Below are positions 4,011-23,921 of a stretch of 32,000 nucleotides of DNA, piece by piece; position 1 is the stretch's first letter, and each line of letters begins with the position of its first letter. The translations under genes and the position numbers were made by a program. Origin of the DNA: Candidatus Electrothrix sp. GW3-4 (lineage in GTDB: Bacteria; Desulfobacterota; Desulfobulbia; Desulfobulbales; Desulfobulbaceae). The stretch spans positions 2,070,001 through 2,102,000 of the forward strand of contig NZ_CP147990.1 in assembly GCF_037902255.1 (NCBI RefSeq), read 5' to 3'. Below the pieces are notes generated by a model. That model searched no databases, was not told the DNA's origin, and saw only the letters and a list, made by a program, of their open reading frames with translations.

Positions 4011-4745
4011 GTGTACAGTATCGGCCTTGGTGGATTACTGGGCCTGAAATATACCCTTGCCCTCTCCGATTATGTCATACCAGCTCTTCCTTTGCTTCTG
4101 GAGACAGCAAAAGCTGTACTGACAGACTATATCCCCGCAGTCCTCAGTACCTTCTGGGTGACTGTTTTAGGACAACTGCTCTCTATCCTCCTGGCCTTCA
4201 GTCTGGGTATTGCCGGACGAAACACCTCCTGGCTGGGCTCCTTTATCCGGGTAACAGCCTATAACATCCAGGCCTATCCCATTGTAGCCCTGGCCCCGAT
4301 CATTTTTATCCTGCTCGGTGACGGCTTTCTCTCCCGGCTCCTCATCGCCTCCATGATCTGTTATTTCCCCCTCCTCCTCTCTGTCCTCGGGGTCATGGCA
4401 GCCCCGGTTCAGGATATTGAACATTTCTATCAGGCCACAGGGCGGATGACCTGGCAATTAGAGGTCAAGATCCGGGCCTTTGAAAACCTCAGCAAGCTGA
4501 CCACCGCAATCTCCGGCAGCGCGACCCTGGCTATGGCCGGAACCATTGTGGCGGAGTTTATTGCTGCCAATGCTGGGATTGGCTACAGCATCCGTACAGC
4601 CCTCTATCAAAGCGATCTGGCAAAAATCTTTATTGCCCTCTTCCTGATCGGCATTATCATCTCTGTTTACCAAGGGGTGCTTGAAAGTCTTGGCACCTGG
4701 ATTATCCGCAGAACCTCAACCAAACCATCGTCTCATGCCCAATAA
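3954..4745 (+). CDS. ABC transporter permease (NitT/TauT family), 5' end displaced by the IS; the present ORF has a hybrid N-terminus encoded by the IS right end
   Basis: ORF 3954..4745, with GTG at 3954 and ATG at 3963, both inside the IS. From 4011 onward it is a typical multi-helix permease (…FWVTVLGQLLSILLAFSLGIAGR…, IVAEFIAANAGIGY). The first 19 residues (MGDMKNYILEMDRGYAECG) derive from IS sequence. Confidence 0.8.
   Translation: MGDMKNYILEMDRGYAECGVYSIGLGGLLGLKYTLALSDYVIPALPLLLETAKAVLTDYIPAVLSTFWVTVLGQLLSILLAFSLGIAGRNTSWLGSFIRVTAYNIQAYPIVALAPIIFILLGDGFLSRLLIASMICYFPLLLSVLGVMAAPVQDIEHFYQATGRMTWQLEVKIRAFENLSKLTTAISGSATLAMAGTIVAEFIAANAGIGYSIRTALYQSDLAKIFIALFLIGIIISVYQGVLESLGTWIIRRTSTKPSSHAQ
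4011..4016. repeat. target-site duplication GTGTAC (right copy)
   Basis: See the left copy. Confidence 0.7.
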
Positions 4746-5721
4746 GCACACTACCTTATGGCCCATCTTGCTCTGTTCCTTCATTTATCTCCTGCTCTCG
4801 ACCTTCTCAGCCCAGGCAAATGAACAACAGATTCGCTACAGACTGAAATGGCTGTTTAACACCAGTGTTGCCGGAGATATCTATGCCGACAAGGCGGGCT
4901 ATTTTGCCGCCCAGGGCCTGCGGGTCACGGTCCGGGAGGGGAGCCCGGAAAAAAATGCCCTCAATGAGCTGGAGTTGGGGCGGGCTGAGTTTGGGGTAGC
5001 CTCGGCAGATCAGGTGATTCGGGCCCTGGATAAGGGAGCACACCTTGTTGTCCTGGCGCAGATCTTTCAGATAAACCCTATGCAGTGGATCTACCGGGCA
5101 GATCAGCCGAAAATTGAGACCCTGGCCGATCTTCGGGGCAGAAGGATAGGTATCACCTTGGGCGGGAATGACGAGACCATCATGCGCACGCTGCTGACCA
5201 AGGCCGGAATCAAAAAAAAGGAGGTCAAGCTGAGCGGGGTTCGTTTTGACTTCACCCCCTTTTTCCGCCGCAAAGTCGAGATCTGGCCGGTCTACCGCAA
5301 CAGCCAAGGCGTCATCCTGCAAGAGAAACTGGCCAAGGAGGGAGAGGCTGTTCGTTTCTTTAATCCGGCAGCCTTTGGGGTGCATTTTGTTGCCAACTCA
5401 GTTATCACCTCAGCAGAGATGATCAGGGAACAACCTGAGGTGGTGAAAAAATTCCTGAGCGCCTTATTACAGGGTTGGGAGGCGGCCATGAACCCAGACA
5501 ACGAGGACAAAGTACTGGCTGCGGTGCAGGAGCAGGATAAGGGCACCAAGGCAATGCTGATGAAAAAGCAACTTGCCTCGACCCGAGAACTGGTGCTGGC
5601 GGATGCCCCCAAAATAGGAGCCATTGACCTCCCTGCCTGGCAGCAAACTGAGGCAATCATGTTAGAGGCAGGCCAGATTAAGCAGGCCGTGCAGGTGGAA
5701 AAACACCTGCGGGTGAGGTAG
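4735..5721 (+). CDS. ABC transporter periplasmic substrate-binding protein (NMT1/THI5/SsuA-like)
   Basis: ORF 4681..5721. Start taken at ATG 4735, which gives a signal peptide MPNKHTTLWPILLCSFIYLLLSTFSAQA and overlaps the permease end. Family call rests on the conserved block RLKWLFNTSVAGDIYADKAGYF. Confidence 0.8.
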   Translation: MPNKHTTLWPILLCSFIYLLLSTFSAQANEQQIRYRLKWLFNTSVAGDIYADKAGYFAAQGLRVTVREGSPEKNALNELELGRAEFGVASADQVIRALDKGAHLVVLAQIFQINPMQWIYRADQPKIETLADLRGRRIGITLGGNDETIMRTLLTKAGIKKKEVKLSGVRFDFTPFFRRKVEIWPVYRNSQGVILQEKLAKEGEAVRFFNPAAFGVHFVANSVITSAEMIREQPEVVKKFLSALLQGWEAAMNPDNEDKVLAAVQEQDKGTKAMLMKKQLASTRELVLADAPKIGAIDLPAWQQTEAIMLEAGQIKQAVQVEKHLRVR

Positions 5722-5741
5722 AGCAGGCAAACCTCTGCTCT
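5720..5741 (+). terminator. candidate intrinsic terminator between convergent genes
   Basis: Stem AGAGCAG / CTGCTCT (7 bp) with an 8-nt loop, followed by GCGTTGTTCTG, which is only a weak T tract. Confidence 0.3.
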
Positions 5742-5780
5742 GCGTTGTTCTGCACCATTACTCTCCACTTCTGACCACAA

Positions 5781-6359
5781 TCAGTTAACGACAACCACCT
5801 CCACTCTTCGATTAATCGCGCTCAGCGGATTATACGGATCAAGCAGTTGATCCTCCCCCATGCCTATGGGGATAATCCTCTGGGCAGGGATCCCATGAAC
5901 CTGGACCAGATAACGGGCAGCACTGTGCGCCCGCCTGACTGACAAGTTTCTGTTGTACTCGCGGGAACCGGCTGCGTCCGTATGTCCAATAAGCTGAATA
6001 CGGGAATGCCGCAATTTTACGTCCTGCAAGGCTATGACGAGCTGATCTAATTGACGCTTTGCCACCGGCAAGAGTTCGTCCGAATCATAAACAAACTGAA
6101 CAGCAGTAAGGGTAGAGAAACCAGTTGGCGCTGGAGCTGTCTGTACGGCCTGAACAGGTGTTGCCGAAGGGGACGCAACAGGTCGAGGAACAAGCCCTCT
6201 GGTACGCCGTACTGGTTCGGCAGGCGGCAAGGGTGCCAGTTCCATAATGAGGTCTTTGGCTGACTTCACCTCCTCTTCTTCTGCAAAAGAACCCTTTGCA
6301 AACAAGAGGATTACAGAGAAAGCAGCACCGCACAAAACAGCCGCTCGTTTTTTCAGCAT
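5781..6359 (-). CDS. OmpA-family peptidoglycan-binding protein, exported
   Basis: ORF 5781..6422. Start at ATG 6359 behind GGAGGA. Signal peptide MLKKRAAVLCGAAFSVILLFAKGSFA, then a Pro-rich linker, then an OmpA_C-like block IQLIGHTDAAGSREYNRNLSVRRAHSAARYL…NRRVEVVV. Confidence 0.85.
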   Translation of the reverse strand: MLKKRAAVLCGAAFSVILLFAKGSFAEEEEVKSAKDLIMELAPLPPAEPVRRTRGLVPRPVASPSATPVQAVQTAPAPTGFSTLTAVQFVYDSDELLPVAKRQLDQLVIALQDVKLRHSRIQLIGHTDAAGSREYNRNLSVRRAHSAARYLVQVHGIPAQRIIPIGMGEDQLLDPYNPLSAINRRVEVVVVN

Positions 6360-6435
6360 GGTATATCCTCCGCTAATCCGAACGATGTGCAATAAATGCC
6401 ATACTGCCGCCCGGATTATCATGGATTCATCATCG

Positions 6436-7308
6436 TTATTGGTGCTTTAACTGAATTTCCATTGCCACTGGCTCACCGGCAGTATTAACAACATATCTCC
6501 CCGGATCATTTGCAACCGTCACGGGAGTTGAAATCCTTCCTGTATAACTGCTGCTCTTGCGGTTAATCCTCAGCGCCGGTGCTGTATAAAAACCGCTTGC
6601 TCCTTCAAGAACGAGATCTTTTGTCCCGCTAACAACGCTTTCAAGCAGCGATTTACTCTGGCTGTAGTTATCATATAATCGATTAAATTCTGCGCCTGAA
6701 GCACCGACATGGGCCTGACCAGCCTGACCAGGTAGCAAAATAAGACGGAGGGTCTCGCCCCCTTTATTATTATCAAAACGAAGCCAGCCATTGGCAGAAG
6801 GTATAACATACTGCTTACCCATGGTGACCCCGCCTTTTGCGGCCACTGGAAACGTTTTCTCCCGACCCGAACTTCCGGTATGGTGAACCAGGATAGTACC
6901 TGCGACATTGGCGCTCAGGTGAATCCTGATCTTCTCCCCGCTTCTGAACACACGTCGATCACTCACCCGCTGGATCATACTGCTCCCCGGCCTGGAAAGC
7001 TCTATCCAGTAATGCATCCCCGGATTTTTTAATCGATCATAATAATTACTTATACCGGTGTACGCCTGACCTGCGCCACCGCTACCACCTGATGCTGGCC
7101 TATATTGTCCTCCTGTTCCACCACCCGGAGCCTGCACAACATTCCCGGATATTACCCCGGAATTTGTCCCGCTGTTCGGATTGTAAAAAAGGGCCTTGGC
7201 TTGTGACTCGACCTCTGCATGACCGGTACCAAACGCCAAAAGAACACAACATACGGCCAGCATGACAGGACTGCTTGGTGCCGAAAATAACCTTTTTGGG
7301 GTCTGCAT
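6436..7308 (-). CDS. exported DUF4384-domain protein with Gly-rich linker
   Basis: ORF 6436..7461. Start at ATG 7308 behind AGGAGA. Signal peptide …VMLAVCCVLLAFGTGHA. The DUF4384-like core is FRSGEKIRIHLSANVAGTILVHHTGSSGREKTFPV…YVIPSANGWLRFDNNKGGETLRLILLP. Confidence 0.75.
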   Translation of the reverse strand: MQTPKRLFSAPSSPVMLAVCCVLLAFGTGHAEVESQAKALFYNPNSGTNSGVISGNVVQAPGGGTGGQYRPASGGSGGAGQAYTGISNYYDRLKNPGMHYWIELSRPGSSMIQRVSDRRVFRSGEKIRIHLSANVAGTILVHHTGSSGREKTFPVAAKGGVTMGKQYVIPSANGWLRFDNNKGGETLRLILLPGQAGQAHVGASGAEFNRLYDNYSQSKSLLESVVSGTKDLVLEGASGFYTAPALRINRKSSSYTGRISTPVTVANDPGRYVVNTAGEPVAMEIQLKHQ

Positions 7309-7333
7309 AGTATTCTCCTGTTCGGTTAAGATG

Positions 7334-7831
7334 CTATTGAATGAAAAACTTATGCCTTTCCAGAATAGTCCTGAACTCCGGCTCTCCGCGCACATTATCC
7401 AGGTCGCGGTCAAAACGAAGTGCATCGGCATTGTTAAAACCATTACCCAGGGCCCGTTCAAGGGCTTCCAACGACAAATCGGTCTGATTCATTAAGGAAT
7501 AAATAACCCCCAGGTTATACTGCGTAAAGGGACTGTTCGGGTCAAGAGCAGCACCCTTGCGAAGAGATGCAAGGGCCTTATTATTTTTGCCCACCTGAAT
7601 ATAGGCTACCCCAAGGTTGGTATGCGCTTCAGCAGAATTCGGATTTTCTTCCACTGCCCGCTTACACTCACGAATAGCATTGGGATAATCCCCCTGATTT
7701 GCATAAAACAGACATTGCTGGAGATGGTTGATCTTGGTTTCACCTGGTGGTCCCTGCGGACCAGTACACGAGATGAAAAACATTCCGGCCAATATTGTTC
7801 CAATAAATATTTTTCCTGTCCTTCCTGTCAT
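7334..7831 (-). CDS. TPR-repeat lipoprotein
   Basis: ORF 7334..7879. Start at ATG 7831 behind GGGGGGA. Lipobox-like GMFFISC, followed by about three TPR units (AEAHTNLGVAYIQVGKNNKALASLRKGAALDPNS…). Confidence 0.75.
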   Translation of the reverse strand: MTGRTGKIFIGTILAGMFFISCTGPQGPPGETKINHLQQCLFYANQGDYPNAIRECKRAVEENPNSAEAHTNLGVAYIQVGKNNKALASLRKGAALDPNSPFTQYNLGVIYSLMNQTDLSLEALERALGNGFNNADALRFDRDLDNVRGEPEFRTILERHKFFIQ

Positions 7832-7887
7832 GAGCATTCCCCCCTGTAGTAACAATTCCCCTGAGCAGACAAATAACACAGCCTTAC

Positions 7888-9348
7888 CTAGGGCTCAATA
7901 AGGTACTCAAACACCCCCTTTGACCATTTGACGGCCCGATTCACCTCGTCGCCCACCCATACCGCCTGGAGCCGACGGGTCACCTCAGCCAGATAGGTCG
8001 TTGGTTCGCTGATGACCTGAAGATCCTTATGCATGCCGAGTAAATCACTCATTTCAACCCGGTCCTCAGTAAAGATGGCGATCAGCGTATTCTGACCAAG
8101 GGGAAGCTGGGCCTCAATGGAAAAACCCCAATCAGGCCCAGGAACAACAACTGTGGTATGGGCAGGGATAAAATTATCAACTGTAGGTGTGCTGTACTGA
8201 TTAGGAAAAACCTGCAGCATCTCTCCCTTGGCATTGATATCCAACAGGATCAGATATCCGCTTTTGTTACTTCTACATTCAACGGTTACCGTGTCACCAA
8301 GGCGGAGACGCCGCCCTTCCCGCACCCTGACGCTCACTTCGCCTGAATCTTCTCCAGGGAGCATGGATTCAACACCTGTCTGTACACTCAGCTGTGATTT
8401 TTTTTCACCTGTCAGGCTGCTCCCGTAGAGATCTTTTCCGATTTCCAACATGGGGGTAAGTCCGAGTGTGCAGATCTTATGGTTTCGTTTGCAAAATGCC
8501 TCGGATTCCTGGCGCAGGTACATCAGCTGTTCGCTATTGGTAACAATTCCGTCCTTATTAAAGTCCGCCTTTCGCTCCCGCACCCCTTGAATAAACCGGT
8601 TGGTAAAAAACGACCCAGACCTTGTTTCAAGATCGGTAAAGGCCTTTTGTGAACTTGATGCCGCTGACCAGACAGTAACATGATTATTTCCCGGAATAAA
8701 ACCGCCCTCTCTCCTGAGAGCCTTTGATGCCGTTACCGTCAATCCCCTTGTACCTTCGGACGAAGCAAAGGGATCAAGGGATTTGGTATAACGTATTCCC
8801 CCTTCTTGAGCCTGCAGCTGCACGGGGAGCCCCCCCCGTGACACCGTGCCGGAATAACAGGAATCGAAGATAAGAATAATCTTTCTCTCCTGAAGTCGCT
8901 GCACAAATCCTGCAATTTCATCGTCCAAAATCATATGCTCCACAATGCGCTCTGCCGGTTTGGGCAAGGTATCGTAGGGGGCCAGCGTTTCATCCTCTCC
9001 GTCTTTTTCATCACCATCTGTATCTTTCTGGTGCCAACCATGTCCGCTATAGTAGAGGAGCAGTTCCTGATCAGTGCTTTTCTCCAACCAGTTCTTCAAT
9101 TCAGACAAAATATTTTTTCTTGTCGCCCTGCTATTGATCAGCTTATGAATGTCTTCTTTCCTATACCCCCAATCGGCCTTTATAAGCTTCTCTATATTTT
9201 CAACATCTTGAACAGGACCGCGCAAGTGAGCTGCATGCGGATAGTCTTCAATCCCGATGAGCAATGCCTTTTTCGCCTGGGCTGCAGGTGCGGATAAAAG
9301 CAGGAGCACGAGGGCAAGTATTTGAACTGTTTTTTTTCTCACTAACAT
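7888..9348 (-). CDS. exported caspase-family (peptidase C14) protein with C-terminal DUF4384 domain
   Basis: Signal peptide MLVRKKTVQILALVLLLLSAPAAQA. The catalytic dyad context is LLLYYSGHG (His) and ILIFDSCYSG (Cys). An acidic insert DTDGDEKDGEDE is present. The C-terminal block LRLGDTVTVECRSNKSGYLILLDINAKGEMLQVFPN…FIPAHTTVVVPG…FSIEAQLPLGQNTLIAIF matches the DUF4384 pattern. Confidence 0.85.
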   Translation of the reverse strand: MLVRKKTVQILALVLLLLSAPAAQAKKALLIGIEDYPHAAHLRGPVQDVENIEKLIKADWGYRKEDIHKLINSRATRKNILSELKNWLEKSTDQELLLYYSGHGWHQKDTDGDEKDGEDETLAPYDTLPKPAERIVEHMILDDEIAGFVQRLQERKIILIFDSCYSGTVSRGGLPVQLQAQEGGIRYTKSLDPFASSEGTRGLTVTASKALRREGGFIPGNNHVTVWSAASSSQKAFTDLETRSGSFFTNRFIQGVRERKADFNKDGIVTNSEQLMYLRQESEAFCKRNHKICTLGLTPMLEIGKDLYGSSLTGEKKSQLSVQTGVESMLPGEDSGEVSVRVREGRRLRLGDTVTVECRSNKSGYLILLDINAKGEMLQVFPNQYSTPTVDNFIPAHTTVVVPGPDWGFSIEAQLPLGQNTLIAIFTEDRVEMSDLLGMHKDLQVISEPTTYLAEVTRRLQAVWVGDEVNRAVKWSKGVFEYLIEP

Positions 9349-9390
9349 CGCAAACTCAAGTTAACGTCCTTCCACGATATCATCTCGCTC

Positions 9391-9422
9391 AAAACAAAAA
9401 TCCCCCGGCAATACCGAGGGAT
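9391..9422 (-). terminator. rho-independent terminator between the beta-barrel gene and the caspase gene
   Basis: Reverse-strand RNA reads AUCCCUCGG-UAUUG-CCGGGGGAU, a 9-bp stem with one G-U pair, followed directly by UUUUGUUUU. Confidence 0.65.
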
Positions 9423-9524
9423 CCTTGCTTACAGTACGTCGTCTTCGCTCATGCCTTTGTCCTGCTGCTGCACTACTGTCTGGCCAGTTCCTTCTGGCTC
9501 TATTTTCACCCGGGAAGGCAAGAG

Positions 9525-10430
9525 CTAAAACTGATAGCTAAGGGCGAAACGGAAGATGTAGGACTCTTCCTCTACATCGCTTGAGGAATCGTCATAATAT
9601 TGCTGAGGCCCTTCATTATCATAACCCCAATCCACTGTAATCTCATTACCGGAGAAATCATCAAAGGTGTACTTATACCAATCCGCCGTAATACTGTAGC
9701 TGAGTGAATCAGTCAGGTAGGACTTCCAGGCCACTCCGATGGTCATTCCTGTTGCATCACCACCATCGTTATTGATAGTTACATGGTTTCTGGAGTAGTA
9801 AATGGTATTGCTCCCCTCATAGGAGTAAAAACTGTAACTATCGTATCTTGACGTTAGATCACCGTCCAACAGGGCATAGGCCGCCTTTATGGAAAGGGTA
9901 CTGTCTTCAAAGAGGTTCCACCCATAGGAGAGGCCCAGGAACCAGCCATCCGCAGAGAACTCTGTCTCACCATCCAAAGGGTCCAACGCACTTAATACAC
10001 TATCAGTATAACTAAATTGGTCTGTAAAAGAGGTTTCATGACTATTCCAACCAGCGAAAACGGACAGACCGCCGGTGATATTATAGCCCAGGGTCAAGGC
10101 ATAGGCAAACACGTCGAAGTCTGTATCGTAGTAAGCGTAATCATAAGTCTCATCATCACTGCCTTCCATGGTTTGTTCAAAGGAGGCATCAAAGTAAAAC
10201 TTACCCGCAGCCAGGGTTAGGCCCGCCCCCCCGGTCAACAGGTCGTCCCCCACATCCGCAAAGTCCGATGTACCGGTATCATTGCCCCAATTACTGACCT
10301 GCCATTTTAGACTGTAATGATTAATCCCCACACTAGCTCGCGGGGTGATACTGACAGCAGAAGCAAAACTGTTTTGGGCAACAAGAAGTGAACTCCCCAC
10401 CAATACGGCCATCATCATTCTTTTCTTCAT
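9525..10430 (-). CDS. outer-membrane beta-barrel protein
   Basis: ORF 9525..10490. Start at ATG 10430 behind AGGAGA. Signal peptide MKKRMMMAVLVGSSLLVAQNSFASA. The body shows alternating hydrophobic/polar Gly/Tyr/Ser/Asp-rich strands and ends with the C-terminal signature …FALSYQF. Confidence 0.7.
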   Translation of the reverse strand: MKKRMMMAVLVGSSLLVAQNSFASAVSITPRASVGINHYSLKWQVSNWGNDTGTSDFADVGDDLLTGGAGLTLAAGKFYFDASFEQTMEGSDDETYDYAYYDTDFDVFAYALTLGYNITGGLSVFAGWNSHETSFTDQFSYTDSVLSALDPLDGETEFSADGWFLGLSYGWNLFEDSTLSIKAAYALLDGDLTSRYDSYSFYSYEGSNTIYYSRNHVTINNDGGDATGMTIGVAWKSYLTDSLSYSITADWYKYTFDDFSGNEITVDWGYDNEGPQQYYDDSSSDVEEESYIFRFALSYQF

Positions 10431-10623
10431 AGCTTCTCCTTTGTTTAGTTCTTTTGTCAATAATTCAATAATTCCTCTTCGTCCAACCACCTACTTACTG
10501 AAAATTAATTGAAATTGTGCGGAATGCTCGTTTTTACCCGCCCTGATTAAGGTACTCAAATAATTCGATTAAAAAAACATCTCCCTAACCTCTTGTTTAT
10601 GAAAATAAAACTACTCCCCTTAT

Positions 10624-10890
10624 CTAACGGTTAAATCTTTTTCTTTTTTTTTGCAAGGAAAATTTACTCTTACAGTCTTCTGATTTTATTCTTTTTCTTC
10701 TTAAAGCCATTGATAAGCTCACCGAGATAACAGCTAGCAAACAACTTATCGTTTTTAAATCCATACTTTTTTTGATCAGCTTTGGGTAACCACAATCAAG
10801 GCTCTCCCCCCCTTGATGCTCCTCATAGACGGTGCCCGTTCTACCGCTGCGGAAAGATATCGACTTTCTGTTCTTATACAGAACCGCCAT
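10624..10890 (-). CDS. hypothetical small membrane protein (weak call)
   Basis: Internal ATG of ORF 10624..10971, behind AAGGGG. There is one hydrophobic helix (TISCLLAVISVSLSMAL) and a Lys/Arg-rich tail. The context is AT-rich intergenic, so it may be spurious. Confidence 0.2.
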   Translation of the reverse strand: MAVLYKNRKSISFRSGRTGTVYEEHQGGESLDCGYPKLIKKSMDLKTISCLLAVISVSLSMALRRKRIKSEDCKSKFSLQKKRKRFNR

Positions 10891-11055
10891 AATTATCAAC
10901 CCCTTACTTTCACGAGATACTGTAATGTGATAATAAATAAATCCCTTGCAATTTGAGACATAATTGAGCAAAGTTTTATATGCATTCTGCCCTCCCTTGA
11001 ATCTTGGTCGAGATTCATGAAAAAGTAATCACAGATCGGACTGAATGTACATTTT

Positions 11056-11091
11056 GATCAACTCCCCTCATAAAGAGGAGGGGAGTTGATC
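11056..11091. repeat. perfect 14-bp inverted repeat (hairpin), GATCAACTCCCCTC - 8 nt - GAGGGGAGTTGATC
   Basis: Read directly: arms at 11056..11069 and 11078..11091. It lies in the divergent control region, about 150 bp upstream of the DUF4384/CHASE2 operon. No flanking T tract on either strand, so it is not a canonical terminator. Confidence 0.6.
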
Positions 11092-11242
11092 GGAAAAGAC
11101 CAGGCCTATCTCATGAGTTAGGTGAGATTCTTGTGAAGAGTTAATGAGCAGTTCATCTTCGACCCAGCGTATCATATTGAATTTTCTAAAAAACAAAAGG
11201 AATCTGCACGAAAAATTCCAATCCAGGGGAGAGAAAAAAATT

Positions 11243-11953
11243 ATGTATTATAAAAGAGTTATTATCGAGACAAAAAAAATAAAGACCATCCTGTTATTTT
11301 CTCTGATAATTTTACAATGTTCTCTCGTTTTCTCTCCAGCAGATGTCTTTGCTGCAGAGAGCAAGACAGACAACGAGATCTCTTTTGTCTGGGCATTCGC
11401 TGCAATCAAAAATGCGAGCGGCCGTCCTGAATCGGTAAATATAGATCGCGATATCACCTTAAAAAAAGGCGATCAAATCAAGATGCTGGTTCAGTTAACA
11501 TCACATTGCTTTGTCTATGTTATCCATTTAGGCAGTAAAGGCGAAATGAGCCTTCTCTATCCTGAGGGAGCTGGGCAACATCAATTGAAGAATAAAGTAT
11601 TTATTCCCCAGGGTGACTATTGGTTTACCTTGGATGAAAATAAAGGAAAAGAAACTGTTTACCTGTTGGCATCGAAAACGCGGCTCATATCCCTTGAAGC
11701 CCTTTTTGAAAGGTATAAGACCCTGGATCAGGGAAGTAAAAACAACATGAAAGATCAAATTTTAAGCCAAATAAGGAGGATAAAAAAACAGCATAAAAAA
11801 CCACTTTATGGTAAAGCAGAACGCCCTGTGTTAATAGGGGGGGCATTTAGAGGTCTTGAAAAAGAAGCATCAGAAAATTCAATCACAAGACATTCAATAC
11901 AAATTACAGCCAAAGAATTCTATAGTCGAACATTCATCATTCACCATGAATAA
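11243..11953 (+). CDS. exported/membrane-anchored DUF4384-domain protein
   Basis: ORF 11144..11953. Start at ATG 11243 behind GGGGAGAG puts the hydrophobic segment TILLFSLIILQCSLVFSPADVFA at the N-terminus. The core LKKGDQIKMLVQLTSHCFVYVIHLGSKGEMSLLYP…VFIPQGDYWFTLDENKGKETVYLLAS matches DUF4384. The stop overlaps the next gene's start. Confidence 0.75.
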   Translation: MYYKRVIIETKKIKTILLFSLIILQCSLVFSPADVFAAESKTDNEISFVWAFAAIKNASGRPESVNIDRDITLKKGDQIKMLVQLTSHCFVYVIHLGSKGEMSLLYPEGAGQHQLKNKVFIPQGDYWFTLDENKGKETVYLLASKTRLISLEALFERYKTLDQGSKNNMKDQILSQIRRIKKQHKKPLYGKAERPVLIGGAFRGLEKEASENSITRHSIQITAKEFYSRTFIIHHE

Positions 11954-13928
11954 ACAAACGGATACAAAAACAACTGGTTTTTTGATTTGTTTTTCTTTTA
12001 TCCTCTCACACGTCTGTTTCTGGTTACTGCCAAACCTCTTTCAGTCCTGGAACTTAAAAGCCGTTGACCATCTCTTTCAATATCGGATAAAAAACGAGCG
12101 GTTTAGTCCACAATACAATGATACCATTGTTCACGTTGACTTAAACGATACCAGTATCCAGGATTTTGATAATTACTATCTGGATCGCACCTACTATTCA
12201 AGGGTCATTGAAAATTTATCCAGAATGGGCGTTCAATCCCAACTGCACGATTTTTTATTTGTTGCGCCCACGGACCAAGATAAAGACAAAAAATTAATAG
12301 AGGCCGTAACCAAGGCAGATAATGTCTATTTTGGTATGGCCTTTAGGTTCAACGAGACCGGGCAAAGGTCACATATTTCCGTTAAATCACCAGCAGCTCA
12401 ATATTTAGATGAAACTAGCTATTCCGTTAAAACAAAAGGCGATCTATCTCAAGTATACAGAGGCAATAATCCCATATCTACCTTTCCCGCCCTGGCAAAG
12501 GCAGCAAAAGGAATTGGTTTTTTAAATATTGTAAACGATATTGATGGGGTTTTTAGACGGGCTCCCCTGCTTGTACAGTATAAGCAAGATTTTTATCCCA
12601 GCCTTGTCTTTCGCGCAGTCTGTGATCTACTCAACGTGTCTCCTCAAGATATCATCATCACGCCAGGCAAATCCATTCGTCTGAAAAATGCAAAAAAAGC
12701 TAGCGGATCTCCACCAAGAGATATCGTCATCCCTATAGATGCATCGGGAAAGATGCTCATCAATTTTGTCGGTACCTGGGAAAAAATGAAACATTATAAC
12801 TTCTCAGACATCTACTACTCTTCTGAGTATTCAGGTGAAATTGACATGTGGACTGATGAGTTATCTGGAAAAATTATTATTGTTTCAGATGTGACCAGTG
12901 GATCATCAGACATAGGGGCAACCCCCATAGATGCCAATTTTCCTTTATCCGGACTACATGCCAATACCATTCATACCATACTGACCGAATCCTTCCTCTA
13001 TGAGGTCTCCCCACAGCACATGCTGGCAATAATGTTTGGCATATCAATCATCATGTATTTGCTTTGCATTCTTATTCCCTCCATTTGGTTTGCCTTGGGA
13101 GCAGTCCTCCTGGGCATTGGCTATATCTTCACAGCATCTTTCTTGTTTTTATCAAAGCAAATTATACTTAACATGATTAATCCGCCTTTCATGATCATTT
13201 TGTCTATAGTACTCGTGCTATCCTATCGATTTTTTCAAGATGAAAAGGAAAAAGAGGTCCTACGAAGGACATTTGAAGCATATTTCTCCCCGGCTATCGT
13301 TAAAAAAGCAATGAATAATCCAGACCTTCTGGTATCAAACGGAAATAAAAAAGAACTCACCATTCTCTTTAGTGATATTGTCTCCTTTACTTCCCACTCT
13401 GCCAATATGGCTCCTGAAAAAGTGCAACAACTCCTCAATGAGTATTTTAGCGAGATGACCAAAATAGTCTTTAAACATAATGGTACGGTCGATAAATTTA
13501 TAGGGGACGGTATGATGGTTTTTTTTGGTGATCCAGAACCCATGAAGGACCATGCCTTAAAATGTGTACAAGTCGCCATTGAAATGCAGGAAAAAACAAC
13601 TGAACTGAGAGATGCGTGGACCAGAAAGGGAGACATGCCCCTGGAGATCAGAATTGGCGTCAACACAGGCAAGGTCTTTGTGGGAAACATGGGATCACCC
13701 CAGCGCCTTTCCTATACGGCCCTTGGCGGTGCAGTGAATATGGCTCAACGCCTGGAATCAAACGCCCCGGTCAACGGAATCCTCATCTCACAACATACCA
13801 ATGATCTCATTAAAGCTCACTTCAAGACAAAATGCCTTGGAAAAATTATGTTAAAAGGCTTTAAAGATCCTGTTCCAGTGTTTGAAGTAAAAAAACAACG
13901 TGCTGAATCAATGCATCAGGGAGCTTGA
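11946..13928 (+). CDS. CHASE2 extracytoplasmic sensor domain - transmembrane - class III adenylate/guanylate cyclase
   Basis: ORF 11856..13928. ATG 11946 overlaps the upstream gene's stop by 8 nt. Layout: N-terminal helix, about 330-aa periplasmic CHASE2-like region (…GFLNIVNDIDGVFRRAPLLVQYKQDFYPSLVF…), a cluster of about three helices, then a cyclase domain (ILFSDIVSFTS, DKFIGDGMMVFFG, RIGVNTGKVFVGNMG, YTALGGAVNMAQRLES). The Lys in DKFIGDG and Thr in YTALGG are consistent with an ATP-specific class IIIb enzyme; that is inference. Confidence 0.85.
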   Translation: MNKQTDTKTTGFLICFSFILSHVCFWLLPNLFQSWNLKAVDHLFQYRIKNERFSPQYNDTIVHVDLNDTSIQDFDNYYLDRTYYSRVIENLSRMGVQSQLHDFLFVAPTDQDKDKKLIEAVTKADNVYFGMAFRFNETGQRSHISVKSPAAQYLDETSYSVKTKGDLSQVYRGNNPISTFPALAKAAKGIGFLNIVNDIDGVFRRAPLLVQYKQDFYPSLVFRAVCDLLNVSPQDIIITPGKSIRLKNAKKASGSPPRDIVIPIDASGKMLINFVGTWEKMKHYNFSDIYYSSEYSGEIDMWTDELSGKIIIVSDVTSGSSDIGATPIDANFPLSGLHANTIHTILTESFLYEVSPQHMLAIMFGISIIMYLLCILIPSIWFALGAVLLGIGYIFTASFLFLSKQIILNMINPPFMIILSIVLVLSYRFFQDEKEKEVLRRTFEAYFSPAIVKKAMNNPDLLVSNGNKKELTILFSDIVSFTSHSANMAPEKVQQLLNEYFSEMTKIVFKHNGTVDKFIGDGMMVFFGDPEPMKDHALKCVQVAIEMQEKTTELRDAWTRKGDMPLEIRIGVNTGKVFVGNMGSPQRLSYTALGGAVNMAQRLESNAPVNGILISQHTNDLIKAHFKTKCLGKIMLKGFKDPVPVFEVKKQRAESMHQGA

Positions 13929-14096
13929 TCCTCTATAAACCCTCCGGTAGCGGCGCGGATGATGCCCCCTCCACGCAGGCGATGAAAAGAGTACGATAAA
14001 TAATCTGAGTTGGAAGCTTGGTCGGCTTTGCCAATCACTTTCATATTACATAAAAAGGCAAAACAGGCAACCAAGAATCAATACAATCTAATTATA

Positions 14097-15722
14097 ATGA
14101 ACAACCGTTTACTTTTTGGGATTATTTGCACAATTATTCTCTGTCCATCTCTTCTGCATGCCCAAAAAAAAGTACAAATTTTTAATGCGCAAGGCGTTGA
14201 ACAGATACTGTATCGACAGAGTCACGCCTTATTGATTGGTGCTTCGGATTATACTGCCGGTTGGCCCGATCTTCCAGGAGTAAAGGAGGATATCGCAGCT
14301 GTAGAAAAAATCCTAAAAGAGCATAATTTCAGCATAACCAAGATCTTAAACCCTGATAAACAGGCCTTAAATGAAGCCTTTGAAAAATTTATTCGCGATT
14401 ATGGATTGGATGAAGAAAACAGACTTCTTGTCTACTTTGCTGGCCATGGTTACACCCTGAAAAAAAAATATGGTGAAGAAATGGGATATATCGTGCCCGT
14501 TGATGCCCCAAACCCGCATAATGACGAAAAGGGGTTTATCAGTAAGGCAATGCCCATTGAGCGCATTGAACTTTTTGCCAAAAGAATTGATGCCAAACAC
14601 GCGCTTTTTATCTTTGATAGCTGCTTTTCAGGTTCCATCTTCTCCTTGTCTCGGGCAATTCCAGCAAGTATTACCGATAAAACCTCAAAACCGGTACGGC
14701 AATTTATCACTTCTGGAGACGCTGATGAGGAAGTTCCTGATATCAGCGTGTTCAGCCAACAATTTATTTCCGCCCTCTCTGGGGACGGGGACAGTAACCG
14801 TGATGGCTATCTTACTGGCAGCGAATTAGGTTCTTTTCTTACAGATACGGTAATCAATTATTCGAAAAATACCCAACATCCGCAATATGGTAAAATACGT
14901 AACCCCCACCTGAATAAAGGTGATTTTGTTTTCATCCTTCCTCAAAAGAAATTATCTGTAAAAGCAGTTAGTCAGAGCGATAAGCAAAAGACTAGCGATA
15001 CCGCTTTAGGAGAAGGTGGAAAGTTTTCAGAACAAGCCGAGCTTATGTTTTGGGATACCATAAAAAACAGCTCGAATCCCGCTGATTTCAAGGCCTACTT
15101 GGAACAATTCCCGCATGGCAAATTTGCAGGTCTTGCTCGGATTCGTAGTGGTAAATTAGATAGTTCAGTCACTTCGAAACCTGCTATACCAGAGAAGACA
15201 ACAAAGGAGGCTGCACGAATCGCCAGAGAGCAGGAGGAGGCGAGAAAGAAAAGAGCGGAGGCTGCACGAATCGCCAGAGAGCAGGAGGAGGCGAGAAAGA
15301 AAAGAGCGGAGGCTGCACGAATCGCCAGAGAGCAGGAGGAGGCGAGAAAGAAAAGAGCGGAGGCTGCACGAATCGCCAGAGAGCAGGAGGAGGCGAGAAA
15401 GAAAAGAGCGGAGGCTGCACGAATCGCCAGAGAGCAGGAGGAGGCGAGAAAGAAAAGAGCGGAGGCTGCACGAATCGCCAGAGAGCAGGAGGAGGCGAGG
15501 AAGAAAAGAGAAATTTTATCTCAGTACAACAAGGTACTGAGCCTGGGTTTTAAGGCGGTTGAGCAAAATAACCGCGAGAAAAGTCAGGATTACTATAATC
15601 AGGCTCGACAGTTGGCTGATACATACAAGCTTTCCCGCAAAGATCTGCGTCAATTAGAGCAGAAAATAAAATCCATCAAGAAAGCAAAAAAGAAAAAACG
15701 TCGCATTATCAGCACATTTTAA
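14097..15722 (+). CDS. exported caspase-family (peptidase C14) protein with C-terminal E/R/K-rich tandem-repeat helix
   Basis: ORF 14010..15722. Start at ATG 14097 gives the signal peptide MNNRLLFGIICTIILCPSLLHA. The dyad context is LLVYFAGHG (His) and ALFIFDSCFSG (Cys). Downstream features are the FWDTIKNSSNPADFKAYLEQFPHGKFAGLARIR motif, then 6 x EAARIAREQEEARKKRA, and a basic C-terminus. Confidence 0.85.
   Translation: MNNRLLFGIICTIILCPSLLHAQKKVQIFNAQGVEQILYRQSHALLIGASDYTAGWPDLPGVKEDIAAVEKILKEHNFSITKILNPDKQALNEAFEKFIRDYGLDEENRLLVYFAGHGYTLKKKYGEEMGYIVPVDAPNPHNDEKGFISKAMPIERIELFAKRIDAKHALFIFDSCFSGSIFSLSRAIPASITDKTSKPVRQFITSGDADEEVPDISVFSQQFISALSGDGDSNRDGYLTGSELGSFLTDTVINYSKNTQHPQYGKIRNPHLNKGDFVFILPQKKLSVKAVSQSDKQKTSDTALGEGGKFSEQAELMFWDTIKNSSNPADFKAYLEQFPHGKFAGLARIRSGKLDSSVTSKPAIPEKTTKEAARIAREQEEARKKRAEAARIAREQEEARKKRAEAARIAREQEEARKKRAEAARIAREQEEARKKRAEAARIAREQEEARKKRAEAARIAREQEEARKKREILSQYNKVLSLGFKAVEQNNREKSQDYYNQARQLADTYKLSRKDLRQLEQKIKSIKKAKKKKRRIISTF
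15207..15510 (+). repeat. tandem repeat, 51-bp unit x about 6 (five identical copies, the sixth with one substitution and a divergent end), in frame within the caspase gene
   Basis: Unit GAGGCTGCACGAATCGCCAGAGAGCAGGAGGAGGCGAGAAAGAAAAGAGCG starts at 15207, 15258, 15309, 15360, 15411 and 15462. It encodes the 17-aa unit EAARIAREQEEARKKRA. Confidence 0.95.
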
Positions 15723-15740
15723 AGGAAATAAGGGCGGATA

Positions 15741-16523
15741 TCATTTTGGCACCACCCGAATCTCAAACAGCCAGGGCCAGAGTTTTCCGGTCACAACGAG
15801 GCGATCATTCACCGGATCGTACATAATCCCGTTGAGTACATCTGTTTTTCCTTTCCAGATGCTCTGTACCTGGGCGGAGAGCTCACTCAGGTCAAGCCAG
15901 CCAGTGACCCTGCCGTCCTCTGGGTGAATAATGGCAATCCGATCTGTCTGCCAGACATTGGCATAGATCGCTCCCCGCACATATTCCAGTTCATTGAGTC
16001 TGGTGACTTTCCCCTGATCATCATGCACCAGGATCTGCCTTTTTTCCTGCAAGGTCTCAGGATCAAGAAAATAGAGAGAGGCCGAGCCATCACTAACGAT
16101 CAGCTCCTTGCCGTTATGGGTAATCCCCCAGCCCTCACGCGGGTATGGCCAGGATCTGATCACAACCAATCGTTCCCTATCCAAGAGAAAGACCTGTCTG
16201 TTTTTCCAGGTCAGCTGGTAAATTCGATCCCGAAAGACCGTGATTCCCTCAGCAAAATATTGCCGTCTGTAGCGCCGCTGCCGATGCACGGCTCCTGTTT
16301 TCAGGTCCAGCGAGCGTAAGGAGGATCGACCATAGAGCCCGGTTCCTTCGTACATTCGGCCCTCATCCCAGGCAAGCCCCTGGGTAAACGCCTTGGGATC
16401 ATGGGGATATTGTCGAACAAGCCTGTAGGTGAACTGTTTCGGGCGGAGAGTCTGCGTGCTACCCAAGGTGGAGCTCACTCCGAAGAGCAGCAGGAGAAAA
16501 CAGCAAAAAAAACGAGCCTTCAC
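15741..16523 (-). CDS. glutaminyl-peptide cyclotransferase (bacterial/plant beta-propeller type), exported
   Basis: 260 aa with a GTG start at 16523. Signal peptide KARFFCCFLLLLFGVSS. Blocks YPHDPKAFTQGLAWDEG, YEGTGLYGRSSLR, EGWGITHNG, LNELEYVRGAIYANVW are typical of the glutamine cyclotransferase family. Confidence 0.8.
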   Translation of the reverse strand: MKARFFCCFLLLLFGVSSTLGSTQTLRPKQFTYRLVRQYPHDPKAFTQGLAWDEGRMYEGTGLYGRSSLRSLDLKTGAVHRQRRYRRQYFAEGITVFRDRIYQLTWKNRQVFLLDRERLVVIRSWPYPREGWGITHNGKELIVSDGSASLYFLDPETLQEKRQILVHDDQGKVTRLNELEYVRGAIYANVWQTDRIAIIHPEDGRVTGWLDLSELSAQVQSIWKGKTDVLNGIMYDPVNDRLVVTGKLWPWLFEIRVVPK

Positions 16524-23581: not shown

Positions 23582-23921
23582 GCTCAGCATAACCAGCCGT
23601 ACGACCATCCTCTCTCGCTCTGTGTTGGGCGATGGATTTTTCCAACGCCCACAGAACTGGCCAAGGAGACATAGACCTCCTGTTTTTGCTCTCAGCTCCC
23701 TTTACGCAATGTTACAGGATTATCCAGACAGCTTTTCATATTAACGCTCAACAAAAAGCGCCTATGTTATCAAACATACGTCTTACGTTTTGCCGTAATT
23801 TATGCAGATACTTTCTCTAACGCGGGCTTTGCCCGCAACCCAATGACTGTAGAAGTAGAGCCGTTCCTCATGTAAAATGAAAGTATCCCAACAACTTTCC
23901 AGATACAAAAAGGAACGACTC

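Follow-up and report, generated by a model that had tools for sequence, protein, structure and literature searches.

A DUF4384–CHASE2 adenylate cyclase gene pair, frequently adjacent to exported caspase-fold protease genes, in a composite envelope gene region of Candidatus Electrothrix

Composite Organization of the Region

The region at positions 5781–15722 of the window (the whole stretch of 32,000 nt of Ca. Electrothrix sp. GW3-4 DNA that was analyzed: NZ_CP147990.1, assembly GCF_037902255.1, positions 2,070,001–2,102,000) is a composite of two gene units and not a single eight-gene unit, a conclusion in which we have high confidence. Unit A comprises the genes of an OmpA-like protein, a 290-aa protein, a TPR lipoprotein, a C14–DUF4384 fusion and an OMP-like protein, plus a divergently transcribed C14 gene, while unit B is a DUF4384 gene followed by a CHASE2–cyclase gene. 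Unit B would form the conserved core of an envelope signalling module that is found widely, and the third member of this module, in most lineages, would be an exported C14 or CHAT protease with a variable binding domain. The explanation as a whole, i.e., a composite region plus protease-coupled cAMP signalling, seems to us evenly poised between right and wrong, and the proteolytic mechanism is put forward more tentatively.

The eight open reading frames described in an earlier note on this DNA were all recovered where it had placed them, with the probable starts corrected to 6359, 7308, 10430, 11243, 11946 and 14097. The features of the region are:

5781–6359, minus strand: exported peptidoglycan-binding protein resembling OmpA-C, with 192 aa counted from the ATG at 6359, unit A (Pfam OmpA, 1.9e-19)
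6436–7308, minus strand: exported 290-aa protein, Gly/Ser-rich N-terminal region and divergent DUF4384-like core, unit A (profile-profile comparison)
7334–7879, minus strand: TPR protein with lipobox-like N-terminus (...FFISC), unit A (Pfam TPR families; NCBIfam TPR_END_plus, 6.8e-21)
7888–9348, minus strand: exported C14–DUF4384 fusion protease, 486 aa, unit A (Pfam C14, 5e-23; DUF4384, 6.1e-19)
9525–10430, minus strand: exported protein, acidic and rich in aromatic residues, with signatures of an outer-membrane β-barrel, unit A (sequence signatures only)
10431–11242, no strand: AT-rich divergent intergenic region, 812 bp, GC 0.368 (composition)
10443–14109, no strand: 3.67-kb genome-specific segment, formed by the cassette with 787 bp upstream and 216 bp downstream (blastn synteny versus L169 and L171)
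11243–11953, plus strand: exported stand-alone DUF4384 partner protein, 236 aa, unit B (Pfam DUF4384, 4.3e-12)
11946–13928, plus strand: class III (IIIb-like) adenylate cyclase of 660 aa with a CHASE2 receptor part, unit B (Pfam CHASE2, 2.8e-41; Guanylate_cyc, 8.3e-35)
14097–15722, plus strand: exported C14 caspase homologue of 541 aa, the C-terminal part of which holds a helical repeat of 17 aa × 6 (Pfam C14, 6.6e-17)
15206–15510, plus strand: tandem repeat of 51 nt × 6.0, 99% identical, inside the C14 gene and encoding AARIAREQEEARKKRAE repeats (TRF)

Unit A occurs without any cyclase in two other Electrothrix genomes (L169 and L171), and unit B lies in unrelated surroundings in the close relatives L173 and L174, which contradicts the single eight-gene cluster of the earlier note. 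The 3.67-kb segment stands in place of about 0.53 kb of DNA located between the OMP and C14 genes of the relatives, and shows no similarity to the intergenic regions of L169 and L171, which are 84% identical to each other. The homology of L173 to the window is limited to 11230–13893; on this short contig, the cassette is preceded by a PD-(D/E)XK gene and followed by a gene that encodes no caspase. In L174, also a short contig, the 3.7 kb upstream of the cassette contain no caspase. The genes of unit B have the lowest GC3 in the window (0.35–0.41). Judging from these sequence comparisons, the DUF4384–cyclase pair is a relocating, mobile two-gene cassette. A looser OmpA, C14 and C14–DUF4384 grouping recurs in L172.

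The earlier note had described an AT-rich control region of about 800 bp between the divergent genes. Its length and composition stand, but promoter-like sites were not enriched in 10431–11242 (8 found versus 9.8 expected) and an Rfam search of the same interval gave no match. This region contains a perfect 14-nt palindrome (11056–11069/11078–11091). Concerning the wider context, IS elements occur in the window, and the GC3 of the whole cluster is below that of housekeeping genes.

Genes of Unit A

Each of the eight products has TM segments or, at its N-terminus, a lipobox or a segment resembling a signal peptide, in agreement with the export or membrane location claimed earlier. When the domain calls were checked with profile HMMs, those of OmpA, TPR, two Peptidase_C14, two DUF4384, CHASE2 and Guanylate_cyc passed in Pfam, while a third DUF4384 was sub-threshold and the OMP had no family match. 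The OmpA-like protein, with a signal peptide, scored 70.2 bits against a cut-off of 27.2 (ORF 5781–6422), and its NCBIfam equivalog matches were all under their cut-offs; its gene is kept as a neighbour in L169, L171 and L172. The TPR gene, the start codon of which is uncertain (7879, 7837 or 7831), is a conserved neighbour in L169 and L171, and its product scored 20.5 bits with the NlpI model of NCBIfam, far under the cut-off of 250. The fusion protease (Peptidase_C14, 82.4 bits, cut-off 21.4; DUF4384, 68.3 bits, cut-off 27) belongs to a narrow family of 16 matches, mainly from Electrothrix. Both His/Cys dyad contexts reported before are present, as SGHG and DSCYSG in the fusion protease and as AGHG and DSCFSG in the downstream C14 homologue.

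Two assignments were only partly sustained. The 290-aa product, earlier called a secreted DUF4384 protein, did not reach significance in Pfam (E 0.035, 14.6 bits), and its relationship to DUF4384 was recovered solely by profile-profile comparison with the partner family (hhalign probability 89%, E 2e-6, 77 columns); its orthologues are 76–79% identical. The protein described as a β-barrel OMP has the expected signatures, namely a signal peptide, no Cys, 18.7% aromatic residues, dyad-repeat strands, a C-terminal ...FALSYQF and a very acidic composition, but it found no match in Pfam, NCBIfam or PDB, and its single-sequence model was unusable (pLDDT 34). Its orthologues in L169 and L171 are 62% identical.

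The downstream C14 homologue (62.4 bits, cut-off 21.4, ORF 14010–15722, covering profile positions 3–131 of 233) starts with the signal peptide MNNRLLFGIICTIILCPSLLHA. The His of its AGHG motif aligned with the YAGHGY motif of the caspase-like domain of MALT1, which we take to be the site of the MALT1 catalytic His. The repeat helix noted earlier in this protein corresponds to the six 51-nt repeats. Its counterpart in the Electrothrix cluster is the divergently transcribed C14, an orthologue, with 77–78% nucleotide identity to L169 and L171, where the orthologues have 435 aa and 531 aa, respectively; the difference in length probably resides in the 51-nt repeat. The gap from the cyclase gene is 168 nt, and no terminator-like site was found in it on the plus strand. 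The gene order in the window is DUF4384, cyclase, C14, whereas the usual order elsewhere is protease, DUF4384, cyclase. The adjacency of C14 and cyclase in the window is secondary, and does not reflect descent with the cassette.

The DUF4384–Cyclase Pair

The cyclase product is 100% identical to a database protein of the same organism (P0001), and its start was placed at 11946 because P0001 has 660 aa. Scores were well above the gathering cut-offs for CHASE2 (142.2 versus 26.3 bits) and Guanylate_cyc (120.5 versus 21.9 bits; ORF 11856–13928). Hydropathy peaks were located at residues 10–28, 359–377 and 406–424, and a third post-CHASE2 TM segment was recognized by eye near 380–400. The cyclase motifs are FSDI475, DKFIGD516, YTALG590 and VNMAQRLE597, and the product is presumed to be cAMP. 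In the alignment of the family, mean column identity was 63%, with many invariant residues in the ectodomain. The start of the cyclase gene overlaps the stop of the DUF4384 gene by 8 nt (ATGAATAA), and the two genes probably form a translationally coupled two-gene cassette (11243–13928).

The partner protein (DUF4384, 46.4 bits, gathering cut-off 27, ORF 11144–11953) consists of a signal peptide, an FxWAFGA strand, the DUF4384 β-sandwich core, a basic helical hairpin, an invariant AERP...G..RG loop and a C-terminal FYSRTF.I.H. Its homologues form 260 clusters at E ≤ 1e-30, mainly of 220–245 aa, and the alignment of 25 of them (A2) gave a mean column identity of 58%. No solved structure matched it below E 0.02. 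Its AF2 model had a pTM of 0.72, and the sole internal flexible loop of the model (residues 199–208, low pLDDT) contains the invariant Arg203, located between a conserved motif and a Gly. A fusion of DUF4384 with LysM exists (P0178).

Association with Caspase-Fold Proteases

The DUF4384 partner gene lies directly upstream, on the same strand, in 20/20 cyclase orthologues from several phyla (loci with upstream DNA), usually with a start/stop overlap. A C14 or CHAT gene occurs within 5 kb in 14 of the 16 informative orthologue loci and in 4 of the 106 other cyclases (Fisher p = 4e-13, from metagenome contigs and ignoring kinship). The partner proteases are of several classes: C14–FGE-sulfatase (six), WD40–C14 (five), TPR–CHAT (two, in L082 and L097) and MORN–TPR–PDZ–C14 (one). 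Nearly all those with an intact N-terminus have a signal peptide or lipobox, and xGHG and D[SA]C are kept in all the C14 partners checked. Such an enrichment, reached through several unrelated protease architectures, would be difficult to account for if no functional link existed. In Betaproteobacteria, eight of eight loci contain a CHASE2 cyclase gene, a gene for a 300-aa exported protein and then an exported C14–MORN gene, and this is a separate, independent lineage with the same link between CHASE2 cyclase and C14. On these sequence data, exported caspase-fold proteases, DUF4384 proteins and CHASE2 cyclases are truly associated, and the association is conserved.

It is worth mentioning that the caspase link is not conserved within the own subclade of the window, as sampled by the short contigs L173 and L174. 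At another locus, L003, a related CHASE2 ectodomain is combined with a SpoIIE output, and neither partner is present.

Proposed Mechanism and Alternative Explanations

The DUF4384 protein would act in the periplasm, presumably in contact with the CHASE2 ectodomain, which is just as conserved, and would be its partner or co-receptor. The protease would read an envelope cue via its variable domain (FGE-sulfatase-like, WD40, TPR or MORN/PDZ) and would cut the DUF4384 protein, a candidate site being located after Arg203, although the conserved motif before this residue could equally serve as a binding surface. Cleavage would toggle the cytoplasmic synthesis of cAMP, in one direction or the other; the core would thus be conserved and the input variable. 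As to the window, the cassette most probably entered the promoter region between the divergent genes of a pre-existing Electrothrix unit A, directly upstream of the C14 of that unit, plausibly recruited as the protease of the cassette. This adjacency could also be incidental, because the orthologues of the C14 occur without cyclase in L169 and L171. We found no publication that describes the three-gene module (protease, DUF4384, CHASE2 cyclase). The location of the pair beside a protease, nearly always, in other phyla suggests a cAMP pathway of the cell envelope that is coupled to a protease and has not been described before.

An explanation that we consider unlikely, but which deserves attention, is that the pair is a self-sufficient two-component sensor, with DUF4384 as a ligand-binding periplasmic co-receptor of CHASE2, much as binding proteins dock on other receptors, and with proteolysis playing no part. 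The caspases of the window would then be unrelated envelope proteases beside which the cassette came to lie by chance. The pairing is strict, yet the protease is absent from the short flanks of L173 and L174, the closest relatives, and the C14 of the window is present without cyclase in L169 and L171; besides, DUF4384 is also a C-terminal module of Ser/Thr kinases, which fits a sensor domain, and its fusion with LysM also speaks for this reading. Against it are the frequency of adjacent caspase-fold genes in orthologue loci relative to the controls, the independent repetition of the association in the Betaproteobacterial lineage, and the recurrent occurrence of DUF4384 fused to proteases and within a CHAT-protease substrate.

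The earlier note considered the eight genes as one envelope-spanning machine, in which the OMP, OmpA-like and TPR proteins anchor the caspases and the DUF4384 proteins that feed the cyclase. In its favour, every product is either exported or located in a membrane, and the genes adjoin one another on both sides of a single divergent region. The CHASE2 cyclases of Sinorhizobium meliloti do depend on an outer-membrane β-barrel, NsrA, the OMP-like protein of the window is very acidic, and the insertion site could have been favoured by selection. Nevertheless, this model is improbable: unit A is intact without the cassette in L169 and L171, unit A is missing beside the cassette in L173, in L174 and in every other annotated orthologue locus, the GC3 of the two units differs, and the OMP fold is only putative. 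An OmpA, TPR-lipoprotein or OMP set is absent from all the orthologue neighbourhoods with gene annotation, and the anchoring role therefore lacks comparative support. So, of the protease-to-cAMP module proposed earlier, the plus-strand trio is retained and the anchoring is not.

A defence or programmed-cell-death system against phage, like Pycsar, CBASS or Craspase, is very improbable. PADLOC gave matches to PycC cyclase models (best 5.6e-29) and to a 'caspase' model (2.9e-20), and DUF4384 is found in Csx30 of type III-E systems. However, the PADLOC matches are fold-level only, and no gene for a cNMP-binding effector, Cas protein or STAND NTPase was present among the ORFs flanking the cluster. 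The signal peptides indicate that the proteases and DUF4384 proteins act outside the cytoplasm, unlike known defence caspases, and the CHASE2 sensor of the cyclase is also extracytoplasmic. Least probable of all is the absence of any functional relationship, with accessory envelope genes that rearrangements brought together in a genome rich in IS elements: the IS elements, the movement of the cassette between contexts and the low GC3 of the cluster would fit, but chance is excluded for the DUF4384–cyclase pair by its gene overlap and its occurrence in 20/20 loci, and the caspase enrichment, the synteny of unit A among Electrothrix and its looser grouping in L172 also oppose it.

Comparison with Known Systems

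Periplasmic signalling by regulated proteolysis is represented by DegS/RseA and by NlpI, a TPR lipoprotein that acts as adaptor of Prc. In these systems, as in the mechanism proposed here, an envelope protease turns an extracytoplasmic cue into a cytoplasmic response, but the proteases are serine enzymes and not C14, and the output is sigma-factor release or substrate turnover, with no second messenger. By analogy with NlpI, the TPR lipoprotein of unit A is a possible protease adaptor.

The S. meliloti CHASE2 cyclases CyaD1, CyaD2 and CyaK respond to a protein signal and depend for its perception on NsrA, a protein of the outer membrane (PMC7529298, PMC5498481). They share with the window cyclase the CHASE2, TM and class III cyclase layout and, under the mechanism proposed here, the passage from an extracytoplasmic protein or peptide cue to cAMP and the need for an accessory envelope protein; a DUF4384 partner or a caspase is not reported there, and NsrA is a β-barrel, whereas the conserved partner here is predicted to be a soluble protein of the periplasm with a β-sandwich fold. 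The other CHASE2 cyclases retrieved from Alphaproteobacteria, a set without those of S. meliloti, were about 25–30% identical to the window cyclase. BiofilmReg-type operons encode a response regulator, an exported LysM/FecR protein and a CHASE2 histidine kinase (PMC5192318). The gene of a small exported protein thus lies immediately upstream of the CHASE2 sensor, as in the cassette, which implies a periplasmic CHASE2 partner; the differences are LysM/FecR instead of DUF4384, a histidine kinase instead of a cyclase output and no protease gene.

DUF4384 is frequently fused to proteases, and in Craspase (type III-E) the TPR–CHAT protease Csx29 cleaves Csx30, which has a C-terminal DUF4384 in one subgroup (bioRxiv 10.1101/2022.08.17.504292). 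A caspase-fold protease is thus paired with a DUF4384-containing protein, and in Craspase proteolysis is the signalling switch; however, Craspase works in the cytoplasm under the guidance of RNA and controls a sigma factor, whereas here the parts are exported, Cas genes are absent and the output is a cyclase. Finally, the caspase–CHASE2 fusions of cyanobacteria and the EACC2–caspase–CHASE2 proteins (PMC3501461, PMC8195603) point to an evolutionary functional link of the caspase fold with CHASE2. In those fusions the caspase is cytoplasmic and constitutes the output of CHASE2, whereas the window caspase is a separate exported protein and would be an input, because it is on the same side of the membrane as the CHASE2 ectodomain.

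Gene models and domain assignments

The cluster at 5781-15722 comprises eight open reading frames, all of them present as the earlier note had claimed. The cyclase, the C14-DUF4384 fusion and the DUF4384 protein are each 100% identical to a protein in the MAG of Candidatus Electrothrix sp. GW3-4. Signal peptides and database protein models were used to refine their coordinates, as follows.

5781-6359, minus strand: OmpA-like protein
6436-7308, minus strand: 290-aa protein
7334-7879 (start uncertain), minus strand: TPR protein
7888-9348, minus strand: C14-DUF4384 fusion
9525-10430, minus strand: OMP-like protein
11243-11953, plus strand: DUF4384 protein
11946-13928, plus strand: CHASE2 cyclase
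14097-15722, plus strand: C14 protein

Below, the minus-strand genes together with the divergent C14 gene are called unit A, and the DUF4384 and cyclase genes are called the cassette. An export signal or transmembrane segments occur in all eight products, in agreement with the export predicted for them. Most of the domains read previously were recovered with Pfam profiles far above the gathering scores (OmpA, TPR, Peptidase_C14 twice, DUF4384 twice, CHASE2 and Guanylate_cyc), except that the "β-barrel OMP" gave no family match and that, of three DUF4384 modules proposed, only two exceeded the gathering score of 27 (68.3 and 46.4 bits). The third, in the 290-aa protein, stayed below it (14.6 bits, E 0.035); by profile-profile comparison (hhalign) this protein was aligned to the family of the cassette DUF4384 protein, across the DUF4384 core, with 89% probability and E 2e-6.

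The OmpA-like protein matched Pfam OmpA with 70.2 bits against a cut-off of 27.2. It reached no named equivalog (Pal, YfiB, PA1041 and others) and, since all its NCBIfam matches were below the cut-offs, it can be called only generic, OmpA-C-like. For the OMP-like protein (9525-10430) there was no match in Pfam, NCBIfam or PDB, and its single-sequence AF2 model was unusable (pLDDT 34). Its sequence carries a signal peptide, lacks Cys, is 18.7% aromatic, has many amphipathic strands of dyad-repeat type and ends in ...FALSYQF; judged from such sequence features, an outer-membrane β-barrel is a plausible, though unproven, assignment. Acidic residues greatly outnumber basic ones in the protein (Asp+Glu about 16%, Lys+Arg about 3%), a composition reminiscent of NsrA, which is the outer-membrane receptor for the Sinorhizobium meliloti CHASE2 cyclases and whose surface loops are reported to be acidic. 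The gene of the OMP-like protein belongs to unit A, found without the cyclase in the Electrothrix relatives L169 and L171.

The cyclase (Pfam CHASE2, 142 bits; Guanylate_cyc, 120 bits) displays a transmembrane segment, an outside CHASE2 domain, three further transmembrane segments and an inside cyclase domain, with hydropathy peaks at 10-28, 359-377 and 406-424 and another segment, read by eye, at about 380-400. Its cyclase domain contains the motifs FSD477I, IGD521G, DK517FIGD, YT591ALG and VN598MAQR602LE, which, by the roles established for class III cyclases, would hold the metal-binding Asp residues, the substrate-binding Lys and Thr (class IIIb, ATP) and the transition-state Asn and Arg. 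The class IIIb-like Lys/Thr pair makes ATP the predicted substrate. Homologues at 47-56% identity were numerous, with source names in Thermodesulfobacteriota, Bacteroidota, Ignavibacteriales and others.

Pairing of the DUF4384 protein with the CHASE2 cyclase

Neighbourhoods were gathered by exact-protein look-up and by scanning genomes and metagenomes with patterns, and all 168 loci were annotated with local HMMs. The orthologue clade was defined by at least 360 bits on a clade CHASE2 HMM, on which the window cyclase scored 543 bits. A full-length DUF4384 partner was found directly 5' of the cyclase, on the same strand, in 20/20 orthologue loci with upstream DNA, i.e., in 18/18 annotated loci plus L173 and L174, two close relatives carrying the cassette; the window partner scored 3e-98 on the partner HMM. 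An overlap of 8 or 14 nt between the partner stop and the cyclase start is usual, and in the window it is 8 nt (ATGAATAA).

The partners form a well-defined, stand-alone family of 260 clusters at 50% identity (E ≤ 1e-30), nearly all of 220-245 aa. They share a signal peptide, a strand reading FxWAFGA, the DUF4384 core and a basic helical hairpin; the segment AERP...G..RG is invariant, and the C-terminus reads FYSRTF.I.H. The AF2 model of the window partner is a β-sandwich with a helical hairpin (pTM 0.72). A Foldseek search of the PDB returned no solved structure below E 0.02, the best match being generic Ig-like (E 0.021), so the fold gives no functional lead. Arg203, invariant in 25/25 partners, falls within residues 199-208, the sole loop inside the model that has low confidence.

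The protein match P0178 is a 314-aa homologue combining DUF4384 with LysM (PF01476); it connects the partners described here with those of CHASE2 histidine kinases, which are of the LysM/FecR kind. One limit on the link was seen at locus L003 (7670-11917), checked as a possible counterexample, where a CHASE2 ectodomain 41% identical to that of the window is fused to a SpoIIE/PP2C phosphatase output, and the gene is preceded by that of a di-haem cytochrome c peroxidase-like exported protein. The L003 neighbourhood contains neither a DUF4384 partner nor a caspase, which indicates that the pairing is specific to the orthologues with cyclase output.

Caspase-fold proteases near the pair

A C14 or CHAT gene was present within 5 kb in 14/16 informative orthologue loci, versus 4/106 other cyclase loci (Fisher p = 4e-13). 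A scan of genome contigs with the single cyclase gave mostly distant cyclases and was of use only as a control set. Several of the loci without a nearby caspase were cut off by contig ends (L085, L098). So, the association of DUF4384, CHASE2 cyclase and caspase put forward in the earlier note does recur, although not as one unit of eight genes. The partner proteases were of unrelated architectures, namely C14-FGE-sulfatase (six loci), WD40-C14 (five loci), TPR-CHAT (two loci) and MORN-TPR-PDZ-C14 (one locus). Almost all those with an intact N-terminus have a signal peptide or lipobox, and the dyad contexts are kept in every partner C14 checked. Thus, the DUF4384 protein and the CHASE2 ectodomain are strongly conserved while the accessory domain of the protease varies, which is the pattern expected if the protease were the input and the conserved core the transduction part.

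In a separate Betaproteobacterial group, a divergent CHASE2 cyclase is followed by an exported protein of about 300 aa and then by an exported C14-MORN protein in 8/8 loci (L040, L058 at 9038-14142, L059, L064, L066, L071, L074 and L077). This second lineage independently supports the link between CHASE2 cyclases and exported caspases. The middle gene was considered as a cryptic DUF4384 and rejected (hhalign probability 3%, no Pfam match).

Concerning the two window proteases, the C14-DUF4384 fusion scored 82.4 bits on Peptidase_C14 (cut-off 21.4) over profile positions 2-211 of 233, and the downstream C14 protein (14097-15722) scored 62.4 bits over positions 3-131 only. The His/Cys dyads claimed for them were seen in both, in the contexts YYSGHGW/FDSCYSG and YFAGHGY/FDSCFSG, respectively, and the His motif aligns with YYAGHGY of MALT1. 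The fusion family is narrow, with Electrothrix members at 57-76% identity and a few others at 31-37%. The downstream C14 is exported, starts 168 nt 3' of the cyclase with no terminator-like site detected between them, lacks the usual accessory domains of the module proteases and is in an atypical gene order. It is the obvious candidate protease for the cassette in this genome, but its recruitment is uncertain, as no caspase adjoins the cassette of the closest relatives within the short flanks available. Inside its gene, at 15206-15510, there is a 51-nt tandem repeat (6.0 copies, 99% identical) coding for a charged, helical 17-aa repeat; the copy number is probably strain-variable, since the Electrothrix C14 orthologues have 435 and 531 aa.

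Composite origin of the cluster

In L169 and L171 the gene order is RecJ, glutaminyl cyclase, C14 (opposite strand), and then OMP-like, C14-DUF4384, TPR, an approximately 300-aa protein and OmpA, the DUF4384/cyclase pair being absent from this locus in both. By blastn, the downstream C14 of the window is orthologous to the C14 of that Electrothrix cluster, which has no cyclase neighbour, and window segments 10013-10442 and 14110-15354 match L169 segments only about 530 bp apart. The intergenic regions of L169 and L171 are 84% identical to each other and have nothing in common with that of the window. This spacing, together with the dissimilar intergenic DNA, indicates that the divergent intergenic region of the ancestor was replaced by a 3.67-kb segment (10443-14109), which is flanked by neither terminal repeats nor target-site duplications. 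Taken with the synteny of unit A in genomes without the cassette, the replacement makes the downstream C14 a member of unit A by descent and a neighbour of the cassette only secondarily.

The closest relative of the cassette is in L173, with 80% nucleotide identity over exactly 11230-13893, where its neighbours are a gene of the PD-(D/E)XK family and, on the other side, an unrelated one; in L174 it has MTHFR and HD-domain genes upstream. The GC3 of the cassette (0.35-0.41) is the window minimum, compared to 0.45-0.51 in unit A and 0.58-0.66 in housekeeping genes. The OmpA/TPR/OMP set was in none of the gene-annotated orthologue neighbourhoods. The unrelated organism of L172 has a looser counterpart of unit A, which encodes an OmpA-like protein and several exported proteins of the C14 and DUF4384 kinds, and no cyclase. 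In this larger envelope cluster of exported caspases and DUF4384 proteins (2577-12439) are OmpA, C14, C14-DUF4384, two cytochromes c, a DUF4384 protein of 471 aa and two more C14, one of these carrying PG_binding_1 and DUF4189. FecR and Sel1 proteins are encoded a little further downstream (14329-16175).

The region 10431-11242, previously described as an AT-rich control region of about 800 bp, has indeed 812 bp and a GC content of 0.368, but a promoter/terminator scan gave no enrichment of promoter-like sites in it. No Rfam match was obtained in the whole window, this region included. About 150 bp 5' of the DUF4384 gene there is a perfect 14-nt inverted repeat (11056-11091: GATCAACTCCCCTC, 8 nt, GAGGGGAGTTGATC) with no T-tail, which could serve as an operator or form a hairpin in RNA.

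Proposed pathway and alternatives

The evidence best supports a periplasmic pathway of three components, each step of which we infer. The secreted DUF4384 protein would be the partner of the CHASE2 ectodomain, the exported caspase-fold protease would process this partner on a cue sensed by its own variable domain, and the processing would alter cAMP synthesis. Such a pathway seems reasonable in view of three precedents. DUF4384 is often fused to proteases, and some Csx30 proteins, which the TPR-CHAT protease Csx29 takes as substrates, have DUF4384 as their C-terminal domain (bioRxiv 10.1101/2022.08.17.504292). For some CHASE2 sensors an exported partner of the FecR/LysM kind is encoded upstream (PMC5192318), and in S. 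meliloti the CHASE2 cyclases sense a protein signal via the accessory envelope protein NsrA (PMC7529298, PMC5498481). The most specific version, a protease-activated receptor in which an exported orthocaspase or CHAT protein, gated by its variable sensor domain, cleaves a CHASE2-bound DUF4384 co-receptor and so switches cAMP, is put forward tentatively, as a possibility we would not favour by odds. A concrete prediction of the three-component pathway is that the partner would be cleaved at Arg203, in the model loop 199-208; orthocaspases cut after basic residues (PMC6426788).

Among the alternatives, a co-receptor role of the DUF4384 protein that serves CHASE2 without proteolysis fits in part, as it accounts for the strict DUF4384/cyclase pairing and for the L173 and L174 contexts, but not for the enrichment of caspases near the cassette. 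The eight-gene envelope machine proposed in the earlier note is contradicted by the independent occurrence of unit A (L169/L171) and the cassette (L173/L174). An anti-phage, Pycsar-like cyclic-nucleotide system is contradicted by the export of all parts and by a membrane-receptor cyclase with an extracytoplasmic sensor; no cNMP-binding effector gene was seen among the genes neighbouring the cyclase, and this reading was rejected because the PADLOC PycC models match the shared cyclase fold only.

The three-component pathway would extend a known arrangement, in which a CHASE2 receptor works with an accessory protein that is exported, by coupling it to an exported caspase-fold protease. In the caspase-CHASE2 fusions of the literature the caspase is cytoplasmic, whereas in the window module the protease is separate and exported. 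No paper describing a DUF4384/CHASE2-cyclase/caspase module was found in the literature searched, most subscription journals being outside its coverage, and there is a real chance that the module represents a new signalling logic. The papers found mention DUF4384 only as an accessory domain, and CHASE2 is described in one of them (PMC5192318) as a sensor for which no ligand is known.

The comparative evidence joins CHASE2, orthocaspases and DUF4384 in a compact, widespread module with a strictly conserved core and a modular protease input. To our knowledge, bacterial orthocaspases have few known substrates or roles, and we know of no function assigned to DUF4384. What CHASE2 senses becomes a question of three-gene reconstitution, with cAMP as the read-out and Arg203 as the residue to mutate. 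If the protease-activated receptor were true, it would define an input of CHASE2 for the first time, give the exported caspase homologues of bacteria their first physiological substrate and role and assign a function to DUF4384, and it would hold for a module found in several phyla (about 260 clusters of partners at 50% identity). The genome of this cable bacterium, Candidatus Electrothrix sp. GW3-4, records the cassette plugged into a pre-existing exported-caspase cluster, which suggests how such modules recruit local proteases.

Other genes in the window

A second class III cyclase is encoded on the minus strand at 18910-19722, between RecJ and GlmS; its N-terminal FHA domain is partial and covers only profile positions 25-67. 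In the RecJ-GlmS interval of L169 its place is taken by an FGE-sulfatase gene and a toxin-antitoxin pair. An IS-type transposase (DUF4277 and DDE_Tnp_1, 2348-3991) lies between the gene of an ABC-transporter ATPase (1441-2232) and those of its apparent permease (3954-4745) and substrate-binding protein (4681-5721), transporter roles that were read from translations only, and it looks like an insertion into a transporter operon. Finally, a 536-aa open reading frame with no Pfam family (23877-25487, plus strand) is located between pyrE-like and ilvC-like genes, named from their translations.
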